Of a stretch of DNA of 64,000 bases, positions 2,409-24,081 are shown piece after piece. Both the position numbers and the translations under genes were made by a program. The stretch lies in the IMG/VR virus record IMGVR_UViG_3300031419_000581. One strand, written 5' to 3'. The notes below the pieces were generated by a model that made no database searches, was not told the DNA's origin, and saw only the letters and a list, made by a program, of their open reading frames with translations. Within the stretch, counting starts at the first letter, position 1. Every line of letters begins with the position of its first letter. This DNA is from a virus (Duplodnaviria > Heunggongvirae > Uroviricota > Caudoviricetes).

Positions 2409-3089
2409 ATGAAAAAAACCATGTTTGCAGTAAGTGCTATTGCATTAAGCCTTATGTCAGCTTCCGTTTTTGCAGGACCTGCTGAGAAGTCAGAAGCTGC
2501 GCAGGAAAAATTTGTAAGTTATAGTTTTTACGGTGTGGCTGTTCCAGCAGATAATGCAAAGAATATTAAATACACCGATTTACAGAAAATTAAAGACCAG
2601 AAAGCTATGGCGGCTTATCTGAAAGATATTACCAAAAGTGAAAACGCAAAGCTGATTACTTCTGGTGGAGGCATGGATCTTTCGGGAAAAGATTTGGCTC
2701 TTAGTGTAAACAAAGAAATTCCGTATACCAAAAGTGTAACAATGAAAACTGATGCTGCAGATAAAACTTTAACGCAAACTGTGACTATGAAGCAGGATGT
2801 GTTTAATGAAGGCGTTAATCTATTAATGAATTCAAAAGAAGATAATGGTTTTATTCGCACAAAAATGAATCTTAATACAAATACACTGTTATTGATAACA
2901 AAAGGTGATGTAAAAGAGGGAACGCCGGATTCACTGGATACGCATTCAGTTAAAATAGATACATCATTTATCGTAAAACCTAATCAGGTAGTTAAGTTTG
3001 ATAGCCCTGTTTACGAGCGTGAAGGTAAAGAATATAAAGATATTTATTTCATTCAACAGAGCCTGGGAACAACTGCGGTTAAAGGTTAA
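2409..3089 (+). CDS. Secreted protein of unknown function (paralogue A), 226 aa
   Basis: N-terminal signal peptide MKKTMFAVSAIALSLMSASVFA; tandem paralogue of 3221-3862, sharing the C-terminus KDIYFIQQ. Confidence 0.7.
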   Translation: MKKTMFAVSAIALSLMSASVFAGPAEKSEAAQEKFVSYSFYGVAVPADNAKNIKYTDLQKIKDQKAMAAYLKDITKSENAKLITSGGGMDLSGKDLALSVNKEIPYTKSVTMKTDAADKTLTQTVTMKQDVFNEGVNLLMNSKEDNGFIRTKMNLNTNTLLLITKGDVKEGTPDSLDTHSVKIDTSFIVKPNQVVKFDSPVYEREGKEYKDIYFIQQSLGTTAVKG

Positions 3090-3220: not shown

Positions 3221-3862
3221 ATGAAAAAATTGATTATTGCATTATCTGTTATTTTTTCTGGCTTTGTTTCATTTTCAGCGTTGTCTGCTGATCTGTCTGA
3301 TAAAAGTGAAAAAGTTATTTATTATAATGTGATTGGAATTGAAGTACCCGTTGATAAAGCATCCAATATTAATAATACAGATTTAAAGAATATTCAGAAT
3401 GATGAAGAGCTATTTCATTATATGGAAGATTTATTGGATAAAAATACGGGAAATGTCATTCTTTTTTCTCAAGGTAAGATAATTAACAACAAACCTGTTG
3501 TCATTGAAAATTCGAATGATATTCCATATAAAGAGAAGGTTTCTATAACAAGTTTTGAAGACGGTTCACGCTTAACTGAAAACCAGGTGAATGTATTTAA
3601 AGAAGGTGTAAAAATTGTTTTAACTGCACAGGAAGAGAAAGGATTAATTAAGACAAAAATTGATTTCACTGATTCTCATGTGTTATCAACAAAAAGAAGT
3701 GAATATAGTAATACTGAGCCTGATTATATGAATATAAAATCAATTAATATGCGTCAAAATTTTATAACACAATCGGGTCAGGTTATAAAATTTAATTCTT
3801 TTGTTGTTTCGAAAGCGGGTAAGGATTATCAGAATATTTATTTTATTCAGGAAAAATTATAA
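3221..3862 (+). CDS. Secreted protein of unknown function (paralogue B), 213 aa
   Basis: Signal peptide MKKLIIALSVIFSGFVSFSALSA; paralogue of 2409-3089. Confidence 0.7.
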   Translation: MKKLIIALSVIFSGFVSFSALSADLSDKSEKVIYYNVIGIEVPVDKASNINNTDLKNIQNDEELFHYMEDLLDKNTGNVILFSQGKIINNKPVVIENSNDIPYKEKVSITSFEDGSRLTENQVNVFKEGVKIVLTAQEEKGLIKTKIDFTDSHVLSTKRSEYSNTEPDYMNIKSINMRQNFITQSGQVIKFNSFVVSKAGKDYQNIYFIQEKL

Positions 3863-4002: not shown

Positions 4003-6918
4003 ATGCCTTATATAAAAAATTCTCGTGGAGTCAAAGAAAAATATACTCCCGTAAAAATATCTAAAACCCTGTCTGAACTTTATTTCTATATGTATGGTAA
4101 AAAAGCCATTCAATACAGAGGTAAAGTTATAGAAATGACTAAGCGAATTTATGATCGTCTTGCTGATAGATTTGGTAATGATGAAACCAGTGAATGGCCT
4201 TTAGCTGAAATAAGAAATTACACAGAAAGAGAAGTCAGACAAAATACAAATGAAACAATCCACAAAACCTTTTTGTTATTAAATCCGCCTATTATTGATA
4301 GAAAGAATAAAGAAGAAGATGAAGATCTTTTAGGATATAGCTCCAGAAATATACTTGGAAACTTTGAAATTGATCCGGTATGGAATGTTATAACAGAACA
4401 GGAATTTGTTGAGCCTATTTTTGAAAATAATGAAACTCTTCTTGATTTAGGTACAACGATACGTATTAAAAAGCCCAGAACAGCAAAACCTGAAAAGAAA
4501 AAGAAAGAGGGTATTCGTCGCATTCATATTGCGAAGAGGCGTTCTGACTGGATCCAGTTCTGGAAAAAACTTTCTGTATTAACTGATCAAGTTTTCAATA
4601 TAAGCGTTCTGGAAAAAATTGTATCCAGAGAAGATAAACCTTATACCTTCGATTCAGAAGGTTGGTGGATATTTTGGGAAAATGCTATTTTTGAAGCCAT
4701 AAAAGAAGATCCTCGTTTATTCGTTTTATTAAGACTTGCGCAGCAAAGAAAGGCAAGAGCTTGTCTGGTGGGTCAGGATTGGTTGGATGGCTCAGGATTA
4801 AATCAAAAAGAAGGCGACATCCCCACAACGTTATATCTCATGGATCACAGTGAGCAAAACGATCTATATAGACTTTTGTGGAAGGAAAATATGAAACGTC
4901 TGGCAGAAGAAGGTCAGATAGATTCTATTCTGCTTAAAATATTTAATCTTGATAAATTATCCGTATTTATCGATCCCGGAAGAGATAAGCTTATTGACTG
5001 GCGCGGTTATCAGTATCTTAGATTAGGTGGCTGTCTCTGGGATATTCCGTCAAATCATAACTGGAATGTTATTACTTACCCTGGTATCAAAACACAGAAA
5101 GGCTCAAAAGAACCTCCTCAATGGGCATTTATGCGCCTTGCAATGGCATTGTGTGTTAATGAAGCAAACCCCTGGGGTTTTGTATTAGATTTTTATAATC
5201 AATTTTCACAACTTACGATTATTCCTTCTGAAAGTATGCTAAGGCAAGCGGGACGTAAACATGCAAATTTTCTTGAAGATAAATCAACAAAGGTTGAAGA
5301 TAAATTTGAGTCTATTTATGAAGCGATTCACCAGTCAGCAGTCGGAACAAAATGGACGGGAACGGTAAGTATGGACTGGTCAAAAGTCCGTTCAGTGGGG
5401 TCTCCTGTTAAAAATGGTGTGCGTAAATCCAGAGGAATATTACAGTTTGCCAAAACAATTAATGAATCATTGCTGGCGCAAAACAGAACCACTGATGACA
5501 GACCTGTAACAATGGCGCTTCCTCTGTGGCATTTGGAGGTATTAAAACTTATCAGAAATAAAGAAGAACAAATTCCAAATCTGCAATCTGTAATTTATGT
5601 AAGCGATTTATTTATGAAAAGACTGATGAATAACGAGTCATGGACATTATTCGATCCTGTATTTTTCCCTGAATTACAACAAAGCAGCAGTGAAGGTTAT
5701 TTGTTAGCAGAAAGTCTGGCTGATGAGCGAATGAAAATTTATAGTGGATGCGTTAAAAAAATAAGTTCACAAAAATTATGGGGAAGAATATTAAATAATT
5801 TACGTAAAGGCGAGCATTCTCTTGTTTTTGAAGATTCAAATAAAGCCTATGAGTTTTTCCCTAAAATAGCCCCAGGAATAACTGGTTTAGACGGTGTAGG
5901 TCTGTTTCCTTTGCCTGCTTCGAAAGATAATGAACTTTCATGGATAAAATGGCCGTCTATGGCGGTTAACTTATTAAAATGTATTGATGAAAAAGGCATG
6001 CCTCAATTAGATAAGTTAAATGAGATAGTCAGTTTTTCCCTAAGAATGCTGGATAATGCCATAACATTATCACTGAGTGATCAGGATAAGATAACCCATG
6101 ATTTTCGTTCTATTTGTCTGGGTAATATCGGATTTTATGAAGCTATAGATAAAATTATAGAGAATCAGGATGACGATAGAACATCGGTATTAAATCAATG
6201 GATTTCAGGTTTAACAGAAGCATGGTCTATGGCTATTTTAATAGCCGATCAGGAACTGGTAAAAGAAAGAGGTGCGGCAAAAGCATGTGAATTATATAAA
6301 TCAGATTTATCTTTATTTGACCCCATTAAAAATATGGAAAAACTGAAAGAAATGCGTGGTGGAGCATTAAAGATAAATATAAAACAGAATCCGGTCTGGA
6401 ATAGTTTAAATAAACAGGCTGAAATATCAGGATATCGTTTTATTAATAAAAGCTGCTGGGCTCCTTTTAAAAATATGGCAGGAATAGCGGGTGTTTCACC
6501 TGGTGGAATAGGTTCATTGCAGCCTGTTGAAAATATAGAAGATGAAAAAGGTATTTCTCGATGGATTCCTACTCCTTTATTATTAAATAAATGTTTTAGC
6601 TATCCTGACAAAATAAAAGAATATAATAAATCAATGAAACAACCGGGTGTGCCAAGGGTATGGGAGAGCAGTATAAACGATGTGGCGTATCCAAATGAAG
6701 AAAACTGGAAAATGCTAATGGAACAAGCTGCTTTAATACGTCCGTGGAACGATCAGGGTGTATCGGTAACATTACCTATTGGTTTACCTGTAAACAGATT
6801 GAATATATTAATACAGGAAGCCTGGTGGTATGGATTAAATGTAATAAGGTTTGAGAAAGCATTAAAACGAATTGAAAATAAAAATAATGATGAAGAAAAT
6901 GAAATTGAGGAAATATAA
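4003..6918 (+). CDS. Large hypothetical protein, 971 aa, no recognisable domain
   Basis: Uninterrupted 2.9-kb ORF immediately upstream of the HerA-like ATPase gene. Confidence 0.7.
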   Translation: MPYIKNSRGVKEKYTPVKISKTLSELYFYMYGKKAIQYRGKVIEMTKRIYDRLADRFGNDETSEWPLAEIRNYTEREVRQNTNETIHKTFLLLNPPIIDRKNKEEDEDLLGYSSRNILGNFEIDPVWNVITEQEFVEPIFENNETLLDLGTTIRIKKPRTAKPEKKKKEGIRRIHIAKRRSDWIQFWKKLSVLTDQVFNISVLEKIVSREDKPYTFDSEGWWIFWENAIFEAIKEDPRLFVLLRLAQQRKARACLVGQDWLDGSGLNQKEGDIPTTLYLMDHSEQNDLYRLLWKENMKRLAEEGQIDSILLKIFNLDKLSVFIDPGRDKLIDWRGYQYLRLGGCLWDIPSNHNWNVITYPGIKTQKGSKEPPQWAFMRLAMALCVNEANPWGFVLDFYNQFSQLTIIPSESMLRQAGRKHANFLEDKSTKVEDKFESIYEAIHQSAVGTKWTGTVSMDWSKVRSVGSPVKNGVRKSRGILQFAKTINESLLAQNRTTDDRPVTMALPLWHLEVLKLIRNKEEQIPNLQSVIYVSDLFMKRLMNNESWTLFDPVFFPELQQSSSEGYLLAESLADERMKIYSGCVKKISSQKLWGRILNNLRKGEHSLVFEDSNKAYEFFPKIAPGITGLDGVGLFPLPASKDNELSWIKWPSMAVNLLKCIDEKGMPQLDKLNEIVSFSLRMLDNAITLSLSDQDKITHDFRSICLGNIGFYEAIDKIIENQDDDRTSVLNQWISGLTEAWSMAILIADQELVKERGAAKACELYKSDLSLFDPIKNMEKLKEMRGGALKINIKQNPVWNSLNKQAEISGYRFINKSCWAPFKNMAGIAGVSPGGIGSLQPVENIEDEKGISRWIPTPLLLNKCFSYPDKIKEYNKSMKQPGVPRVWESSINDVAYPNEENWKMLMEQAALIRPWNDQGVSVTLPIGLPVNRLNILIQEAWWYGLNVIRFEKALKRIENKNNDEENEIEEI

Positions 6919-7028
6919 AATAAGCCTGGCTTAATTGACTCAAAAGCAAAATCGTTTATTCTTTTATAGAGTCTAAATTTTCATAATAATAAATTAAATA
7001 TAAATTAAATAAAAAAGGTAGGGTTTTT

Positions 7029-8363
7029 GTGCAGATAAAATTTGGTTATGATTCGGCTACGCTGAAAAGTGGTCAGCCCAAAGAAATAATATGGGATTCT
7101 CAAAGATTAATAAATGGTCACGTATTAATTATGGGTAAAAGTGGTACGGGTAAAACATTTACCCTGAAAAAGATGTTAAATCAATTATCGAGCCAGACAA
7201 ATGGAAATTTTCGTTGTCATATAATGGATGTTCATGGGGATATTGATATAGAAGGTTCTTCCACTGTAAAGTTCTCAGAATCAACGGATTATGGATTTAA
7301 TCCTTTAAAAATAAACCCAGATCCTGATTTTGGTGGAGTAAGAAAACGTATTCAATCATTTATTTCAGCCTTGGGTAGAACCGGTTTTAAGTTGGGTCCA
7401 AAACAGGAAGCAGCACTACGAAATGTATTGAATGATTTATATTCTGCCAATGGTTTTTATGACGGTGATCCTAAATCATGGAAATTAAATGATGGAGTAA
7501 AAAGAGCTTACGATAAAAAAAATCCGACAATGGAAGATGCTGTGCGTTATGCTAATTCGAAGTTAAAATCCATGATGCTTGGAACCTCTTCTGCAGCAAT
7601 TACAGCACTGGAAAAATTAAACCGTAAGCAGGCTCAGTTTTATAAAAAAATGAAGCAGGTAAATAAATCATCTCATGATCCTGTTGAAGTCGAAATATTA
7701 AAAAAAGAAGTAGAGAAACTATCGAATGAAGCTCAGACATTATTTGAAGAGCATTTAAAAAATATTCAAACAGGATTTGAATTTACTGACTTGATGAAGT
7801 ATGATTCTAAAGAGGTTATGAAATCTGTTGTGGACAGGCTGGAAAACCTGAATAATATCGGTATATTCAAGCCTAAAAATCCACCGTTTGATCCGAAGAA
7901 TCCGATATGGCGTTATGATATAAAATCATTATCAACGGATGAAAAAAGGCTTTTTGTTTCTTTTATTCTGGAAGCAATTTTTCACAAAGCGGTTCAGCGT
8001 GGTGTTCAAAGTGATGTTGTTGAAGTTGTTATTCTGGACGAAGCGCACTTATTCCTGACAGCAGATGACGATAACCCAATTAATATTATTGCGAAAGAAG
8101 CAAGAAAATTTGGTCTTGGATTATTTGCAGCAAGTCAGTCACCTACTCACTTCTCGGATGACTTTTTGTCAAACGTAAGTACGAAGATCATTTTAGGTAT
8201 TGACCAGATGTACTGGGATAATTCAGTCAGGAAACTTAAAATGGATCAGGCTGCTCTTGAATGGCTGGTGCCACATAAAAGTCTGTTAATACAATTAAAT
8301 AACAAGGGTGAAACGAGAAATCGTTTTATATGGGCAGTCAATGATGTCTATGGCAGAAAATGA
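7029..8363 (+). CDS. FtsK/HerA-superfamily (DUF87-like) P-loop ATPase, 444 aa
   Basis: GTG start. Walker A LIMGKSGTGKT; HerA-like HIMDVHGDI and NPL segments; Walker B VVEVVILDEAHLF. Confidence 0.7.
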   Translation: MQIKFGYDSATLKSGQPKEIIWDSQRLINGHVLIMGKSGTGKTFTLKKMLNQLSSQTNGNFRCHIMDVHGDIDIEGSSTVKFSESTDYGFNPLKINPDPDFGGVRKRIQSFISALGRTGFKLGPKQEAALRNVLNDLYSANGFYDGDPKSWKLNDGVKRAYDKKNPTMEDAVRYANSKLKSMMLGTSSAAITALEKLNRKQAQFYKKMKQVNKSSHDPVEVEILKKEVEKLSNEAQTLFEEHLKNIQTGFEFTDLMKYDSKEVMKSVVDRLENLNNIGIFKPKNPPFDPKNPIWRYDIKSLSTDEKRLFVSFILEAIFHKAVQRGVQSDVVEVVILDEAHLFLTADDDNPINIIAKEARKFGLGLFAASQSPTHFSDDFLSNVSTKIILGIDQMYWDNSVRKLKMDQAALEWLVPHKSLLIQLNNKGETRNRFIWAVNDVYGRK

Positions 8364-8547
8364 GTTAACAGTGAAAACGGAGGAAACAGAAAAGAATGGA
8401 CTCTCCTGTATTCCTTCACCTTGTTTAGTGCCATCTAAACGCTTATTAATGCAATTGCATAGTAAAGGTGAAAAAAGAAATAAAAGAAATGGTTTCACGT
8501 GGGTCAAAAATCGTAATGATATTTATAATATGGAGGAAATTATATGA
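8341..8547 (+). CDS. Small hypothetical protein, about 68 aa (uncertain)
   Basis: In-frame ATGs at 8341, 8344 and 8350; the stop overlaps the next start as ATGA; weak RBS. Confidence 0.3.
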   Translation: MMSMAENELTVKTEETEKNGLSCIPSPCLVPSKRLLMQLHSKGEKRNKRNGFTWVKNRNDIYNMEEII

Positions 8548-8951
8548 CCGAACAAAAAAAATCAGTAAAAAGCAGTGGTCAAAATGGAATTTTAGTAGAT
8601 ATCATCGTTCACCCTATGGTAATGCGCTGGCTTTCTCAGACGGCGCATCAGGATACAGATGGGTTTTGCAGACTGGTGGAATCCAATAATAGTCGTTTTC
8701 GTAAAATGTTTGGTGTTCCGACCTGGCATGCTGACGGGAAAGACGGCTGGACGGAAGGCTGGGCAATCAGTGAAAGTGGATTAAACTGGATGGTCTTAAG
8801 TAGTCCAAAGACTTCGACGAGTCCTGGTATAACAAAATTTAAGATAGTATTATCTATTTCTGAAGAAGAATTTAAAAATAATGCAAAAATGGCGTTAGGT
8901 ATAACAGAATATTTGCAGTATTTAATGCAAACTTTAATGGGTGAAGAATAA
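8544..8951 (+). CDS. Hypothetical protein, 135 aa
   Basis: Strong SD tggaggaaa 5 nt upstream of the ATG; the stop abuts the SD of the next gene. Confidence 0.55.
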   Translation: MTEQKKSVKSSGQNGILVDIIVHPMVMRWLSQTAHQDTDGFCRLVESNNSRFRKMFGVPTWHADGKDGWTEGWAISESGLNWMVLSSPKTSTSPGITKFKIVLSISEEEFKNNAKMALGITEYLQYLMQTLMGEE

Positions 8952-8964
8952 CGGAGGAAGAGTT

Positions 8965-9318
8965 ATGAGTTTACTTATCGATGATAGTGCAAAAAAACGA
9001 CTTGAAGAATTACATAAAGAAGATAAAGCCTCTAACCGGATATTGTTGATTGACCTAAATCAGTCAGGATGTTCTGGCTGGGCATATCACTATTCATGGC
9101 TTGTTTCTCAGGAAGCGTCAAAGAAAAAACTGATCGTTGAAGAAATTGAAATGAACGGTCATCATTTTAGTGTAGGCTATCCAGAAATGTATGCTGATTA
9201 TTTTAAAGGCGCGACATTAATTTATAAAAAAGAAGGATTAAATACGCGTCTGTTAATTGATAATCCGAATGTCATGTCTGAGTGTGGGTGTGGTGAAAGT
9301 GTCAATTTTCAGCAATAG
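8965..9318 (+). CDS. erpA: A-type iron-sulfur cluster carrier (IscA/HesB/ErpA family)
   Basis: GCSGWAY motif and C-terminal SECGCGESV; SD acggaggaag before the ATG at 8965. The track start at 8941 is an upstream GTG. Confidence 0.8.
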   Translation: MSLLIDDSAKKRLEELHKEDKASNRILLIDLNQSGCSGWAYHYSWLVSQEASKKKLIVEEIEMNGHHFSVGYPEMYADYFKGATLIYKKEGLNTRLLIDNPNVMSECGCGESVNFQQ

Positions 9319-9470
9319 TTTTAAAAAAACTAAATAGCAATCTGATAAATGAGAAGCGTTTTTAATAAAGCGCTTTTTTTTATGTTCAAAATATCAAAAA
9401 AGCTGTATTAATTGAAAAAAAGCGGTTAAAATAATAGAGATGATAATTCAAAACATAAAAGGTAATTGAT

Positions 9471-19607: not shown

Positions 19608-21890
19608 TTATTTGAAATAGTTTCTCTGCTTTTTAGAAATAGATTTTCCTTCAAGTTCTTTTTTTCTTACTGCGGCATGAAGCATTTCTTCAATTTTAGC
19701 ATTAAGTTTTGCATGCTGAATTAAGGCATCTTCATTCCCAGTATAAACGTCAGGAAAACGCTGAGTCAGCCAGCGATAAACAGTAAGTAGTTTTACTTTT
19801 TTCTCTGCATCCAGCAATGCTTCGTCTTTACTGTGATAACTTTCTTTTTCAGTCATAGCTTCTTTAACAATTTCCCAGTCAATAATCTGTCCCTGAGAAT
19901 GACGAATCGCCCAGTTTAACAAAATTTCTTCATCATCAATATCGTTAGAATCGACCGGAGCTGTTGCATAGGAATATTGCTCAGTAATAGAAAGATTATT
20001 AAGATTAACAAGTTTATAAGAACGTTCTATTGCATCAGTCATAGGGCATGCTTTGAAAACAGGATGATTTTTCAACAAGTGATTAGCGAAGAATGATAAC
20101 CATTGTGGAAGAGTGCCACCTAATTTTTCATGCCATAATGCAATCTGATCGGGTAGAGGCTGAACCCACCATTTTAAATCACGAGGAGGCTCGTCTTTTG
20201 AATCAAGAAGCTGCCAGAGCATAGCTTCATCATTATCCGACCATGTCGTCACGCCACCTTCAACAACCCAGCCTTTTCTGCCTGCACGGTTAGCAATTTG
20301 CCACACTTCGGAAGGTTTAAGTAGTCTTTCAACGTCACCATCAAATTTTACAAGTGTTGACAGTACAATACGTTTTATAGGAAGATTTAATCCCAACCCA
20401 ATAGCATCAGTTGCAATCAGATAGTCAGTCTCTCCGTCGCGGAATTTCCTTGCTTCTTCACGTCTGACCTCAGGGGAAAGGTGTCCATAAATAACCGAAA
20501 CTTTGAGTCCTCTTTGTTCAGCTTCTTCTTTCCATGCCAACACATCTTTACGTGAGAATGCAATGATTGCATCACCTTGTTGGACACGTTTCCATGACAT
20601 AAGTGCTTTATCTCGTCTTAACTCTTTTTCTGCTGTGAGTTTAACGACATTCAGTTCATCACCTAAATATTTAACCATACGTTCCACATAGGGTAATGCT
20701 GCCTCAGAACCCGTAAGTACTAATTGATTTGTTGGTGCTGAAAGAACGGCTTGTGTCCATGCCCAGCCACGACCAGGATCCGCAAGAAGCTGAACCTCAT
20801 CAAGAACAGAAGCGCCAACACGTTTGTTCCAGCGAGCCATTTCAACAGTAGAGGAAACAAAAGTGCTACCTAATGAACGGCGTCTTTCTTCACCTGTGAT
20901 AAGATCATTAAGTACGCCTTTTTCGAGTAGGGTCTCATGACCTTCAAGTGCTAAAAGTCGTAAAGGTGCAAGGTAATAGCCACTATCAGCAGCAGTAAGT
21001 ATCTGGAATGAACGATATGTTTTTCCTGTATTCGGTGGTCCCATAAAGAAAGTCCATACACGTTTTTCACTTCTTGCTATTTTAAAATGTTGTTCGAATT
21101 TATCAAAATTAACCAGTTTTTCTGCGGCGATCATTGCTGCTTCTTTTTCCTGACGCTTAATACGTGAGCTTTCTTTTTCAATAAAAGCAGTAAAAGCTGC
21201 CGTTATTTTTTTATGTTCATCACCAGAGAAATAGACCTTAGAAATTGTTTGTGTTAACCAGCTAAGCCATGGTGATTTTTGTGCATTATTTAAAAGGCTG
21301 ACTTTTTCAGACCAAACAGAAAAAATATTCGAATGTAAAAATGAGACAAGTTCTGAAAATTTGTTTTCAACCTGCAATTCTTTTTGAATCTCAGTTGAAT
21401 CGAGTTCTTTTGTATTGTGGTAAGCAAATACCCAGTTTTCAAAGGTTTTTTTAGGAACCGGAATATAAAAGAGTGAATTGAGAACAACAGTACTATCAGA
21501 AAGGTTTTCCAGCCATTCTTTTTTGGTGATAACAGCAACCATATCTTTTTTATTATCTTTGAAGGATACGCCCTCTATAATACGATGAAGTTTAGCTGCT
21601 TCAATCCACTCATTGGTAGCCTGTTCTTTATTAAGTTGATTGATATGTTTTTTGAAGGCATTCAGAACTTTATTCCAGTCTTCTGGTTTTATCCAAAGGG
21701 AATTAACGGATATTTTATCGGTTTGGGAATGATATAACTGAGGGGTCAGGCATGTCCAGCCTTCATTAATTTTACTTTCGTAAAAGGCATTATCTTTTTT
21801 ATTAACTTTTGTGATTCCGTCCAACAGGGGTAATTCAATCCATTCTTTTTCAGTAAGGTCGTCAAAGTTTGTAACACTGGAGAATTTCAT
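19608..21890 (-). CDS. SUV3-family ATP-dependent RNA helicase, 760 aa, with an N-terminal extension of about 270 aa
   Basis: Walker A MGPPNTGKTY, DEVQ box and helicase C motifs that resemble mitochondrial SUV3/SUPV3L1. Confidence 0.75.
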   Translation of the reverse strand: MKFSSVTNFDDLTEKEWIELPLLDGITKVNKKDNAFYESKINEGWTCLTPQLYHSQTDKISVNSLWIKPEDWNKVLNAFKKHINQLNKEQATNEWIEAAKLHRIIEGVSFKDNKKDMVAVITKKEWLENLSDSTVVLNSLFYIPVPKKTFENWVFAYHNTKELDSTEIQKELQVENKFSELVSFLHSNIFSVWSEKVSLLNNAQKSPWLSWLTQTISKVYFSGDEHKKITAAFTAFIEKESSRIKRQEKEAAMIAAEKLVNFDKFEQHFKIARSEKRVWTFFMGPPNTGKTYRSFQILTAADSGYYLAPLRLLALEGHETLLEKGVLNDLITGEERRRSLGSTFVSSTVEMARWNKRVGASVLDEVQLLADPGRGWAWTQAVLSAPTNQLVLTGSEAALPYVERMVKYLGDELNVVKLTAEKELRRDKALMSWKRVQQGDAIIAFSRKDVLAWKEEAEQRGLKVSVIYGHLSPEVRREEARKFRDGETDYLIATDAIGLGLNLPIKRIVLSTLVKFDGDVERLLKPSEVWQIANRAGRKGWVVEGGVTTWSDNDEAMLWQLLDSKDEPPRDLKWWVQPLPDQIALWHEKLGGTLPQWLSFFANHLLKNHPVFKACPMTDAIERSYKLVNLNNLSITEQYSYATAPVDSNDIDDEEILLNWAIRHSQGQIIDWEIVKEAMTEKESYHSKDEALLDAEKKVKLLTVYRWLTQRFPDVYTGNEDALIQHAKLNAKIEEMLHAAVRKKELEGKSISKKQRNYFK

Positions 21891-22077: not shown

Positions 22078-24081
22078 TTATTTTTTATTAAACCAAACGG
22101 GATAAACATTTTTATGTTTTTTCCAGAGTTCGGCCACATCCTGTTTATCAAGCGTTTCGTTATTCATTAATTCATTTGCCATATCTTCAACAAAGACAGA
22201 ATGGTTAGTAACCAGAAGTTTAACATCATCATACATTCGCTGAACAAGTGTTGCAGCTTCATCTTCTATTTTAGATCGTGTAATGTCACTTAGTGTACTC
22301 ATGTCAGAAACCGCAGATGTTCTGAGTACGTTTCCTAATCCCCATGAGGCAGACATTCGCATAGCCAAGTCAAATGCTTTTTCCATATCACTGGATGCCC
22401 CAGTAGTAATGGCTCCCATGAATACTTCTTCTGCCGCTCTTCCTGCCATGATAATCTTAATTGTATTTTTAATCTCCTGTTCACTGATAGATACAATCTC
22501 TCTTTCACGAACCTGAAGCATAAGTCCCAGTGCCATCTTACGGGGTGTTATAGTAACTTTTTCAATAGGGTCATGGGAAAGGATTAATGCGGCAACAGCG
22601 TGTCCTGTTTCGTGATAAGCGGTATTTCTTTTTTCGATTTCCAGCATTTCAAGATCGTGTCTTGGATCGCCTAAAAGCATTTTATCACGTGCTTCCATGA
22701 GGTGTTGCTGGGTTAAATGGTTCGCGTTTTCTTTACCTGCCCGAATCAATGCTTCATTAACAAGGTTGGCAAGTTCTGCTCCTGAGAAACCGTTGGTTAG
22801 TCTGGAAAGTGTTTTAACGTCAACATTATCCTGATCAATAACGTGCCCTTCTTTTTCCTGATTTTTAATGGCTTTATTTAGATAGACATTAAGAATATCT
22901 TCTCGTCCTTTTTGATTAGGTTTACCAACAAACACCTGACGGTCAAAACGTCCTGGTCTTAATAATGCATCATCTAATGTTTCAATACGGTTGGTCGCCG
23001 CAATAATCAGCAAATCATGTTTTGAAGCATTAAATCCGTCCATCTCAATTAATAACTGATTTAATGTTTGATCTCGTTCTCCATGTGAGTTATTTGCACC
23101 ACGCTTACCGCCTACTGCGTCAATTTCATCAATAAAAATAACAGATTTTTTAGAACGTCTTGCTTTCTTAAACAGACTTCTTACTCTTGAAGCACCTAAT
23201 CCAACATACATTTCGACAAACTCTGAACCTGAGATTTGATAAAAATCAGCATCAGCTTCTTTTGCAACAGCCTTAGCAAGCATGGTTTTACCATTACCAG
23301 GATCACCCGCAAGAATAATTCCTTTTGGAATCTGTGCTCCAAATTTATCAAAGGATTTTTTATTATTAAGAAACTGGACAACTTCCCTTACATCGCGTTT
23401 GGCATCATCAACACCTGCGATATCTGCAAATGAAATTTTTATATCTTTTGCTTTGACTTTTTTACCACTTTTACTCATAGAACGCATAGCAAAACGTTGT
23501 ACAAAAATAAGAATAAAGGCAAAGAGTGCAACCATAATTATTATATTTAAAAGGGTAATAAGCCAGTTAAGAAACGTTGACCACATACTGGATTTTTCAT
23601 CCTCTGTTGAAACAGAGATATTCATATAATCAGAAAAATCTTTTACAACTTTTATATGTGCTTTACTGCTGTTCAGTAAATCAAGGAAAGTATCACTCAA
23701 GCGACTTATTAAAAATACCTCAGCTTTGGTGCCATCTTTCATGTATACATGAACAGTCATAGCCTGCTCACGATCATTGGATAACATGATAGTATCTACT
23801 TTATCTTCTTTAAGATTACTGAGTAATGTAGAATAGTCCATTTGTTGGGCATTTGATGGCCACAAGTATTTTGCTTTATCCGCAGGTTCAGTTGTTGGAG
23901 ATTTTTTTTTATCATTCGCAATCTTTGTATTTTTCTCTGAAAACTGGGTTTGTTTATTAATCGAAATATTACTTTCAGGGGTTATTGTCTGACTTTGTGT
24001 GTCAGCGCTTGCTGAAAAGGGTAAAAGCATAACGGTAAGCGAACACGCTACGATTAAGTTTTTGATAAATTTAAAAGACAT
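22078..24081 (-). CDS. FtsH-family AAA+ zinc metalloprotease, divergent paralogue
   Basis: Two transmembrane segments flank a periplasmic domain of about 150 aa. The AAA module has an unusual Walker A GDPGNGKT and the second region of homology; zinc-binding HETGHA is present. Confidence 0.75.
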   Translation of the reverse strand: MSFKFIKNLIVACSLTVMLLPFSASADTQSQTITPESNISINKQTQFSEKNTKIANDKKKSPTTEPADKAKYLWPSNAQQMDYSTLLSNLKEDKVDTIMLSNDREQAMTVHVYMKDGTKAEVFLISRLSDTFLDLLNSSKAHIKVVKDFSDYMNISVSTEDEKSSMWSTFLNWLITLLNIIIMVALFAFILIFVQRFAMRSMSKSGKKVKAKDIKISFADIAGVDDAKRDVREVVQFLNNKKSFDKFGAQIPKGIILAGDPGNGKTMLAKAVAKEADADFYQISGSEFVEMYVGLGASRVRSLFKKARRSKKSVIFIDEIDAVGGKRGANNSHGERDQTLNQLLIEMDGFNASKHDLLIIAATNRIETLDDALLRPGRFDRQVFVGKPNQKGREDILNVYLNKAIKNQEKEGHVIDQDNVDVKTLSRLTNGFSGAELANLVNEALIRAGKENANHLTQQHLMEARDKMLLGDPRHDLEMLEIEKRNTAYHETGHAVAALILSHDPIEKVTITPRKMALGLMLQVREREIVSISEQEIKNTIKIIMAGRAAEEVFMGAITTGASSDMEKAFDLAMRMSASWGLGNVLRTSAVSDMSTLSDITRSKIEDEAATLVQRMYDDVKLLVTNHSVFVEDMANELMNNETLDKQDVAELWKKHKNVYPVWFNKK

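Follow-up and report, generated by a model that had tools for sequence, protein, structure and literature searches.

A catalytically dead ribonucleotide reductase α homolog linked to a HerA-type ATPase and a small protein: a possible three-protein machine

Introduction

Which kind of protein stands beside the HerA-like ATPase that is encoded in a 64,000-nucleotide (nt) stretch of DNA (IMG/VR record IMGVR_UViG_3300031419_000581; in the following, the window), and what could the two do together? The genes in question lie on the plus strand: one for a protein of 971 amino acids (aa) at 4003–6918 and, 110 nt further on, one for a 444-aa P-loop ATPase that starts with GTG at 7029–8363. The first-pass annotation of this locus had described the larger protein as domain-less and unknown, and had seen in the pair—together with a small open reading frame (ORF) overlapping the ATPase stop codon—a candidate two-gene system that might belong to antiphage defense. 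Reading the sequence confirms both large ORFs with their positions, strands, and spacing. The larger protein itself turns out to be a catalytically dead α subunit of ribonucleotide reductase (RNR), which is kept together with the ATPase and a third gene at related loci.

Homology and fold of the 971-aa protein

The 971-aa protein is a full-length, catalytically dead homolog of the class Ia RNR α subunit, NrdA. Two Pfam models match it above cutoff, Ribonuc_red_lgC (5.2e-36) and Ribonuc_red_lgN (2.8e-07), and its best PDB sequence match is the class Ia NrdA of Pseudomonas aeruginosa (5im3; 2e-41, residues 282–956 versus 247–911); neither "domain-less" nor "unknown" describes this protein. Aligning 22 family members to 16 genuine NrdAs with hhalign gives a probability of 100 and an E value of 1e-65 over columns 36–970 versus 28–894. 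Hence, the homology takes in the N-terminal ATP-cone.

The AlphaFold2 model reaches a predicted local distance difference test score (pLDDT) of 86 and a predicted template modeling score (pTM) of 0.80, with disorder limited to residues 99–120, 142–165, and the tail 955–971. A Foldseek search with this model again finds 5im3 as the top structure (E 9e-46, TM 0.65–0.72), followed by Escherichia coli NrdA. The structure prediction and profile comparison that had been proposed as a check on a novel protein therefore lead to the NrdA fold—an all-α N-domain plus a 10-stranded α/β barrel—on which Pfam, hhalign, AlphaFold2, and Foldseek agree. Along the chain, a degenerate ATP-cone (aa 1 to ~95) is followed by a family-specific insert (aa ~96–280), the all-α domain and 10-stranded barrel (aa ~281–954), and a disordered acidic tail (aa 955–971). 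The distance to working enzymes is large: identity to true NrdA is ~25%, and the NCBIfam NrdA models match far under their equivalog cutoffs (NF005544, the best, 174 bits versus 965; TIGR02506, 142 versus 341).

Loss of catalysis and retained features

The catalytic sites are named here in the numbering of E. coli NrdA, which we take to be C225, N437, C439, E441, C462, Y730, and Y731. Aligned with true NrdAs, the 22 family members carry replacements at every one of these sites. At the C225 site, LSSC of true NrdA has become LEDx, and at the C462 site CNLGS has become WPSMAV; the finger loop with N437, C439, and E441, SNLCTEI in true NrdA, reads GLDGVGxFP in all 22 members, and TTYY at the Y730/Y731 site is replaced by NVRF. 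The C-terminal Cys pair has given way to a tail rich in D/E and without Cys in most members, and this acidic tail is itself missing in several (L005, L092, and P0025). The NxCxE motif was not found in any RNR-like partner at the 12 related loci checked, and the loss of catalytic residues at these loci includes two very divergent versions of 835–844 aa from organisms of 62–70% GC. Of the features looked for in an NrdA, the thiyl-radical Cys with its Asn and Glu, the redox Cys pair, the tyrosines of proton-coupled electron transfer, and the C-terminal Cys pair are all missing; in all members examined, every residue of the radical mechanism has been lost.

What remains is a maintained protein. 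Intact ORFs of 913–989 aa are present in >20 cluster representatives with identities of 31–77%, and the family shows ~90 invariant positions plus motifs of its own, which argues for purifying selection on the RNR-like protein. The consensus common to this family and true NrdA peaks at aa 301–330 and 361–540, stretches that take in the specificity-site region with loop 1 and loop 2 as well as the helices of the dimer interface. No second NrdA is encoded in the 64-kb window, and no gene annotated as Ribonuc_red_sm (nrdB) was found within 7–10 kb at any locus inspected.

The family is rare. A word-indexed search returned 25 RNR-like family clusters at 417–2197 bits; true RNRs follow only after a gap, at ≤150 bits. 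A profile search run exhaustively over 1.84 billion representatives yielded only ~23 full-length RNR-like representatives at ≥677 bits, below which scores fall to 370, with true RNRs at ≤290. With the RNR-like profile, no relative was found among the GTDB species representative genomes, and hence the family is rare or absent among these; IMG/VR viral contigs yielded relatives neither of the RNR-like protein nor of the ATPase. In the 50% library, nine further RNR-α-like representatives (P0240, P0242, P0246, P0247, P0248, P0251, P0252, P0256, and P0258) are likewise without an NxCxE motif and a C-terminal Cys pair and may represent further, more divergent dead-RNR families.

The ATPase

The motifs that had been noticed in the ATPase are all present in its translation: Walker A GKSGTGKT (aa 36–43), HIMDVHGDI (64–72), NPL (91–93), and ILDEAH (335–340), with the Walker B DE at aa 337–338. 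Its assignment as a HerA/DUF87-type ATPase agrees with the match to Pfam DUF87 (PF01935; 47.3 bits versus a cutoff of 23.2, 3.7e-12) and with PDB profile matches to 8yho, DptH (7es4), and HerA-type chains including those from defense complexes. Among PADLOC models, the C-terminal ATPase domain of DndH (5e-23), mad8 (1e-18), and also HerA models match. On these profile matches, the protein is placed in the HerA/DptH clade of the HerA/FtsK superfamily. An N-terminal HAS barrel, a HerA feature, is missing, as Walker A begins at residue 36: residues 22–80 align to 142–201 of 8yho, whose ~120 N-terminal residues are without counterpart. The NCBIfam HerA models match far under cutoff (NF042943, 48 versus 800; NF040819, 45 versus 970).

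A fragment of a conjugative VirB4/TraC protein, which the first-pass annotation had named as the identity that would overturn its proposal, is ruled out—TIGR00929 scores 35 bits versus a cutoff of 643, the protein has 444 aa and not ~800, and no type IV secretion system (T4SS) genes flank the three genes at the loci scanned. The match to TrwB_AAD_bind of Pfam amounts to only 23 bits.

The ATPase is the conserved part of the module. It has 1107 homolog clusters, the best 120 at 61–100% identity, and an alignment of 33 sequences shows a mean column identity of 64% with invariant Walker A/B motifs. Comparing the window with three related genomes, the ATPase is 64–78% and ClpP 68–82% identical, the dead RNR 43–46%, and the small protein 32–48%; by this measure, the ATPase evolves about as slowly as ClpP.

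Conservation of the three genes

Fifteen independent loci were compared, for which the RNR-like or the ATPase gene served as anchor: the window, L001, L002, L005, L007, L008, L090, L092, L094, L096, L097, L098, L120, L121, and L122. The RNR-like gene, the ATPase gene, and the gene for a small protein—135 aa, encoded at 8544–8951 of the plus strand in the window—occur together in 14 of the 15, over a range of 27–70% GC and with ATPase identities of 58–84%. The linkage is kept despite an inversion of the ATPase gene (L005) and the insertion of unrelated genes (L008 and L120). That the pair might not be conserved in other genomes, the second point on which the first-pass annotation had let its proposal depend, does not hold.

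The flanks recur as well: a divergent ankyrin gene upstream, PilD, SLT, and thioredoxin genes downstream, and ClpP, FtsH, and an SUV3-type helicase nearby. This recurrence across loci points to vertical inheritance of a chromosomal neighborhood and not to a mobile island. The trio hence stays together stably and is passed on by vertical descent. No known defense gene was found among the genes scanned near the trio, in the window or at related loci, and the check for a location in defense islands instead returned syntenic housekeeping or ankyrin genes.

Pilus genes come close to these genes at several places. PilD, a prepilin peptidase of family A24, is encoded right behind the small protein in six loci (L001, L005, L007, L092, L120, and L122), PilMNOP adjoins the trio in L121 (8944–12538), and on a Yersinia plasmid an ATPase homolog has type IVb pilus genes as neighbors. 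This proximity could reflect synteny or give a functional hint.

Mobile-element relatives of the ATPase

Outside the trio clade, the ATPase has relatives in quite different surroundings. More distant chromosomal homologs with 34–54% identity are not accompanied by RNR-like or small-protein genes. The large ORFs beside them were considered as diverged RNRs and rejected, being BamA or TopA. In L099 (3206–3511) and L101 (9571–9876), a 101-aa Tad2-like ORF (PF11195, Thoeris anti-defense 2-like) is located directly upstream of stand-alone ATPase homologs, beside BamA.

By tblastn, full-length homologs of the ATPase are present in 145 plasmid records, the best with 44–51% identity over 97–98% of the query; the hosts are Pseudomonas, Xanthomonas, Yersinia, Salmonella, Burkholderia, and others. 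One jumbo cyanophage (Dfl-JY45) carries a homolog, too. Seven mobile-element contexts were inspected. On ~110-kb plasmids of Pseudomonas, Xanthomonas, and Bordetella (L113, L116, and L117), the order small regulator, DUF5710-ATPase, and HU-family protein is kept, and LPD1 "large polyvalent protein" genes lie near the homolog in Pseudomonas and Xanthomonas plasmids. Other plasmid contexts comprise a MobH relaxase with TraD, or a primase with topoisomerase III on MPF_I conjugative plasmids. The neighboring HU, primase, topoisomerase III, and MobH/TraD genes suggest a DNA-related job for the family. An RNR-like or small-protein neighbor was not found beside the plasmid homologs inspected.

In a neighbor-joining distance tree, calculated without support values, the ATPases of the trio loci group into a single clade, which lies within the plasmid and phage homologs. 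This position inside an otherwise plasmid-carried family suggests that the ATPase was domesticated from a mobile-element backbone gene.

Gene layout, the small protein, and the iron–sulfur carrier

The small ORF that had been regarded as coupled to the ATPase is a duplication relic. This 79-aa ORF (8308–8547) has no homologs and no domains in Pfam, NCBIfam, or PADLOC, and its residues 40–73 resemble the ATPase C-terminus (aa 413–441). Positions 8428–8481 are a direct repeat of 8268–8321 with 74% identity at a spacing of 160 nt; the 3′ end of the ATPase gene has been duplicated in tandem on the plus strand (8268–8547, copy 1 from 8268 and copy 2 from 8428). As this 160-bp duplication explains the spurious ORF, it was rejected as a real gene. 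Although shifted out of frame, copy 2 still overlaps the gene at 8544–8951 through an ATGA stop/start, which is the ancestral arrangement: in more distant relatives without the duplication, a small-protein gene of 122–142 aa directly adjoins the ATPase stop codon or overlaps it. Some relatives bear ORFs of 61–86 aa between the RNR-like and ATPase genes; these are of low complexity, not conserved, and absent from the window, and were rejected likewise.

The genuine third gene of the module is hence the one at 8544–8951. Its product is conserved in every related locus with 25–48% identity and carries the motifs D-x-x-x-HP, GF-x-RL, and GLNW. It has no match in Pfam, NCBIfam, PADLOC, or PHROGs; its structure prediction is poor, and a fold search with it gave no informative match.

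A fourth gene (8941–9318, plus strand) overlaps the small-protein gene by 11 nt and encodes a divergent paralog of the A-type iron–sulfur (Fe-S) carriers, IscA/ErpA-like. It matches Pfam Fe-S_biosyn (3.1e-10) and, narrowly, TIGR00049 (59.9 bits versus a cutoff of 58.8). The equivalog cutoffs of ErpA, IscA, and SufA in NCBIfam are far from reached, which marks it as a divergent paralog; the three Cys ligands of A-type carriers (C-x-n-C-G-C) are kept in all copies. An IscA-like gene lies 0–6 kb from the module in the window, L001, L002, L008, L090, L094, L097, L098, and L121. The carrier is only loosely tied to the module, as it accompanies many relatives and not all. Of the Fe-S genes that had been announced downstream, this single one is present, not several.

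According to a consensus scan, which reports pattern matches only, a terminator-like hairpin followed by a T-run (9351–9378, plus strand) closes this same-strand unit of four genes. The scan found no intergenic plus-strand terminator-like site in 4003–9318; the sole other plus-strand match (4898–4919) falls within the RNR-like ORF. A unit of two genes plus a small overlapping ORF, as first proposed, does not fit this layout, which comprises at least three genes.

Surroundings in the window

Immediately upstream of the module, the genes at 2409–3089 and 3221–3862 are tandem paralogs with 31% identity, each encoding a signal peptide, in line with the secreted paralogs described by the first-pass annotation; a known domain was not found in their products. 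The genome is that of a low-GC (32%) proteobacterium rich in ORFans and ankyrin-repeat proteins. In a pattern scan with its ClpB, identity did not exceed 66% among the 80 best loci of GTDB representatives (Beta- and Gammaproteobacteria).

Further away, an SUV3-type DEXQ RNA helicase of the mitochondrial-type family and an adjoining FtsH homolog are encoded on the minus strand (19608–21890 and 22078–24081), a pair also found near the trio in L002 and L003. A GH5 cellulase-like protein is encoded at 17735–18910. A same-strand run of ORFans at 32316–36774, one with a weak LPD29 match, ends in a C5 cytosine DNA methylase (35803–36774) and may be a mobile-element remnant.

Proposed function and rival explanations

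We propose that the module is an operon on the chromosome of an uncultured proteobacterial lineage, probably one associated with a host, and that it is passed on vertically; it would encode a three-protein machine plus an optional A-type Fe-S carrier paralog. Its motor would be the HerA/DptH-clade ATPase, presumably hexameric and domesticated from a mobile-element backbone gene, and would act on DNA. The dead RNR would serve as a noncatalytic nucleotide-binding scaffold or sensor that recruits or gates the ATPase—a role proposed since the fold is kept and the dimer-interface and deoxynucleoside triphosphate (dNTP) specificity-site region is kept best—and the 135-aa small protein would be an adaptor. 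To this machine, a noncatalytic RNR scaffold partnering a motor ATPase of plasmid origin, we assign a probability of roughly 40%. The identity of the parts, the lost catalysis, and the conserved linkage are established, while it is inferred that the proteins form a complex, sense nucleotides, and act on DNA.

Several observations weigh against this proposal. In the hhalign register, the ATP-cone of the RNR-like family has lost its canonical K-R pair, which leaves nucleotide binding by the dead RNR only putative. No DNA-binding or effector domain is recognizable in the module proteins in Pfam, NCBIfam, PADLOC, or PHROGs, and a physical link among the three proteins is putative. The linkage itself has an exception: L090 (5051–6230) bears the ATPase, a small-protein homolog, and two IscA-like genes—one canonical-looking and one of the module type—with no RNR-like gene within 7 kb, and its neighbors of 523 aa and 479 aa, considered as possible diverged RNRs, gave no matches. 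Distant stand-alone orthologs of the ATPase adjoin BamA and a Tad2-like ORF, or TopA. The plasmid homologs are annotated merely as DUF5710, DUF87, or ATP-binding proteins, with no role assigned, and the domestication is read from a tree without support values.

One rival is the framing as a defense module. Here, an antiphage or antiplasmid HerA-type system would use the dead RNR for sensing infection—for example by way of a phage RNR β subunit, RNR inhibitors, or a shift in the dNTP pool—and for triggering the ATPase, with the small protein as effector. A HerA-type ATPase with an unrelated partner is indeed a recurrent defense architecture; the ATPase matches the PADLOC models of DndH, mad8, and HerA and the PDB HerA chains from defense complexes, its family is carried on mobile elements, and the RNR-like and small proteins evolve fast (31–48% identity) relative to it. 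However, in PADLOC-DB 2.0 the ATPase alone has partial matches and the RNR-like and small proteins have none—the partner is, as had been noted at the outset, unlike the known defense types—and effector domains, be it nuclease, NADase, TIR, or another, were not found. The ATPase is without a HAS barrel and conserved like ClpP, the module is inherited vertically across 27–70% GC, relatives were not found on IMG/VR viral contigs, and conserved housekeeping or ankyrin genes flank the module (ClpP, ankyrin, PilD, SLT, and thioredoxin), with no known defense gene among the nearby genes scanned. We therefore regard defense as unlikely, and the first-pass framing as unsupported. A regulator of the genuine RNR of the cell, in which the dead α subunit would enter mixed complexes with true α or β subunits, much as yeast Rnr4 does, and the ATPase would remodel these and thereby tune the dNTP supply, is consistent with the dimer-interface and specificity-site region as the part best shared with true NrdA, with the full-length architecture including the ATP-cone-like N-terminus, and with the predicted cotranscription of an Fe-S/iron-handling paralog. 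Neither nrdA nor nrdB, however, adjoins the trio at any locus inspected, HerA-clade ATPases are to our knowledge nucleic-acid motors or scaffolds and not protein remodelers, and identity to true NrdA is only ~25%, with residues 96–280 family-specific and largely unalignable. This regulatory role appears improbable.

Two further explanations fare worse. The dead RNR might be a secreted effector on host nucleotide metabolism, exported or chaperoned by the ATPase and the small protein, and comparable to the inactive herpesvirus R1 homologs; a genome rich in ankyrin-repeat proteins and ORFans, the disordered C-terminal tail that is acidic in most family members, and plasmid relatives of the ATPase on MPF_I (Dot/Icm-like) conjugative plasmids would suit this. 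Yet the window regions scanned contain no secretion-system genes, the acidic tail is missing in L005, L092, and P0025, there is no sign of the ATPase being a coupling protein (TrwB_AAD_bind, 23 bits), and a 971-aa cytoplasmic-type enzyme fold, coupled tightly in an operon with an ATPase that evolves slowly, would be atypical of effectors, so that we give this very little credence. That a decaying nrdA pseudogene has come to lie beside an unrelated ATPase by chance accounts for the loss of all catalytic residues, but is effectively refuted by the intact 913–989-aa ORFs in >20 representatives with ~90 invariant positions and family-specific motifs, by the confident structure prediction (pLDDT 86), and by the ATPase linkage in 14 of 15 loci despite rearrangements. 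The three-protein machine, with the dead RNR as scaffold or sensor, is hence the reading that we prefer.

In its strongest form this reading holds that an RNR α subunit has been turned into a noncatalytic nucleotide sensor or scaffold controlling a plasmid-derived HerA-type DNA motor, either as a new system of immunity or mobile-element control or as a new connection of the dNTP status to a DNA transaction on the chromosome; in this extended form it is doubtful. RNR α is among the most intensively studied allosteric enzymes, and a dead-RNR family would be a natural experiment in reusing allosteric nucleotide-binding sites. If true, no family of dead RNR α subunits would have been described in bacteria before this one. 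The linkage to a dead RNR also offers a first point of entry into the function of a plasmid backbone ATPase that is widespread (DUF5710/DUF87, 145 plasmid records). Should the module have an immune or regulatory role, a new type of sensor would join the HerA-partner systems. The literature searched contained no description of a bacterial dead-RNR family, none of a pairing of an RNR-like protein with a HerA-like ATPase, and nothing relevant on DUF5710 or on DUF87 with plasmids.

Relation to known systems

The closest structural relative of the RNR-like protein, P. aeruginosa NrdA (5im3), is a class Ia α subunit with multiple ATP-cones. The two share the N-terminal ATP-cone-like domain, the all-α domain, and the 10-stranded barrel, and the loop-1/loop-2 region is partly kept. 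Where 5im3-type NrdA has ATP-cone 2, however, the RNR-like protein has its largely unalignable insert (residues 96–280); it further differs by the missing catalytic residues, the acidic tail, the lack of an nrdB neighbor, and its partners, the ATPase and the small protein.

For the ATPase, the nearest relatives outside the trio clade are the plasmid DUF5710/DUF87 ATPases and that of Dfl-JY45, full-length homologs with 36–51% identity and the same core size. Many of the plasmid proteins bear an N-terminal DUF5710 extension, which the window ATPase lacks—DUF5710 is not among its best 25 Pfam matches—and they neighbor HU, primase, topoisomerase III, LPD1, or relaxase/type IV coupling protein genes, whereas the context of the window ATPase is chromosomal and syntenic. 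DptH/DndH of the DndFGH phosphorothioate-dependent restriction system shares the ATPase module: DndH is the best PADLOC match, and 7es4 is a top PDB profile match for the N-terminal half. DndH, however, comprises ~1700 aa with other domains, and dndFG genes are not present, so that the likeness concerns the ATPase module alone.

Sir2-HerA, DUF4297-HerA, and archaeal HerA-NurA likewise place a HerA/DUF87-clade ATPase gene beside a large unrelated partner, with which it presumably cooperates. In these systems the partner is a nuclease or NADase, whereas in the window it is a dead RNR; NurA, Sir2, or DUF4297 partner domains were not found in any trio locus inspected. The window ATPase, moreover, has no HAS barrel, and its locus is syntenic and vertically inherited, not part of a defense island.

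Inactive RNR subunits occur elsewhere, in the herpesvirus R1 homologs (M45/UL45) and in yeast Rnr4. As here, an RNR subunit is kept there as a noncatalytic protein with a new or regulatory role; these cases are viral or eukaryotic, are without an ATPase partner, and are related in sequence to the dead RNR only via the RNR family. The folds of the parts and the architecture of a HerA-like ATPase plus partner are, hence, known already, and it is the combination of genes that is novel.

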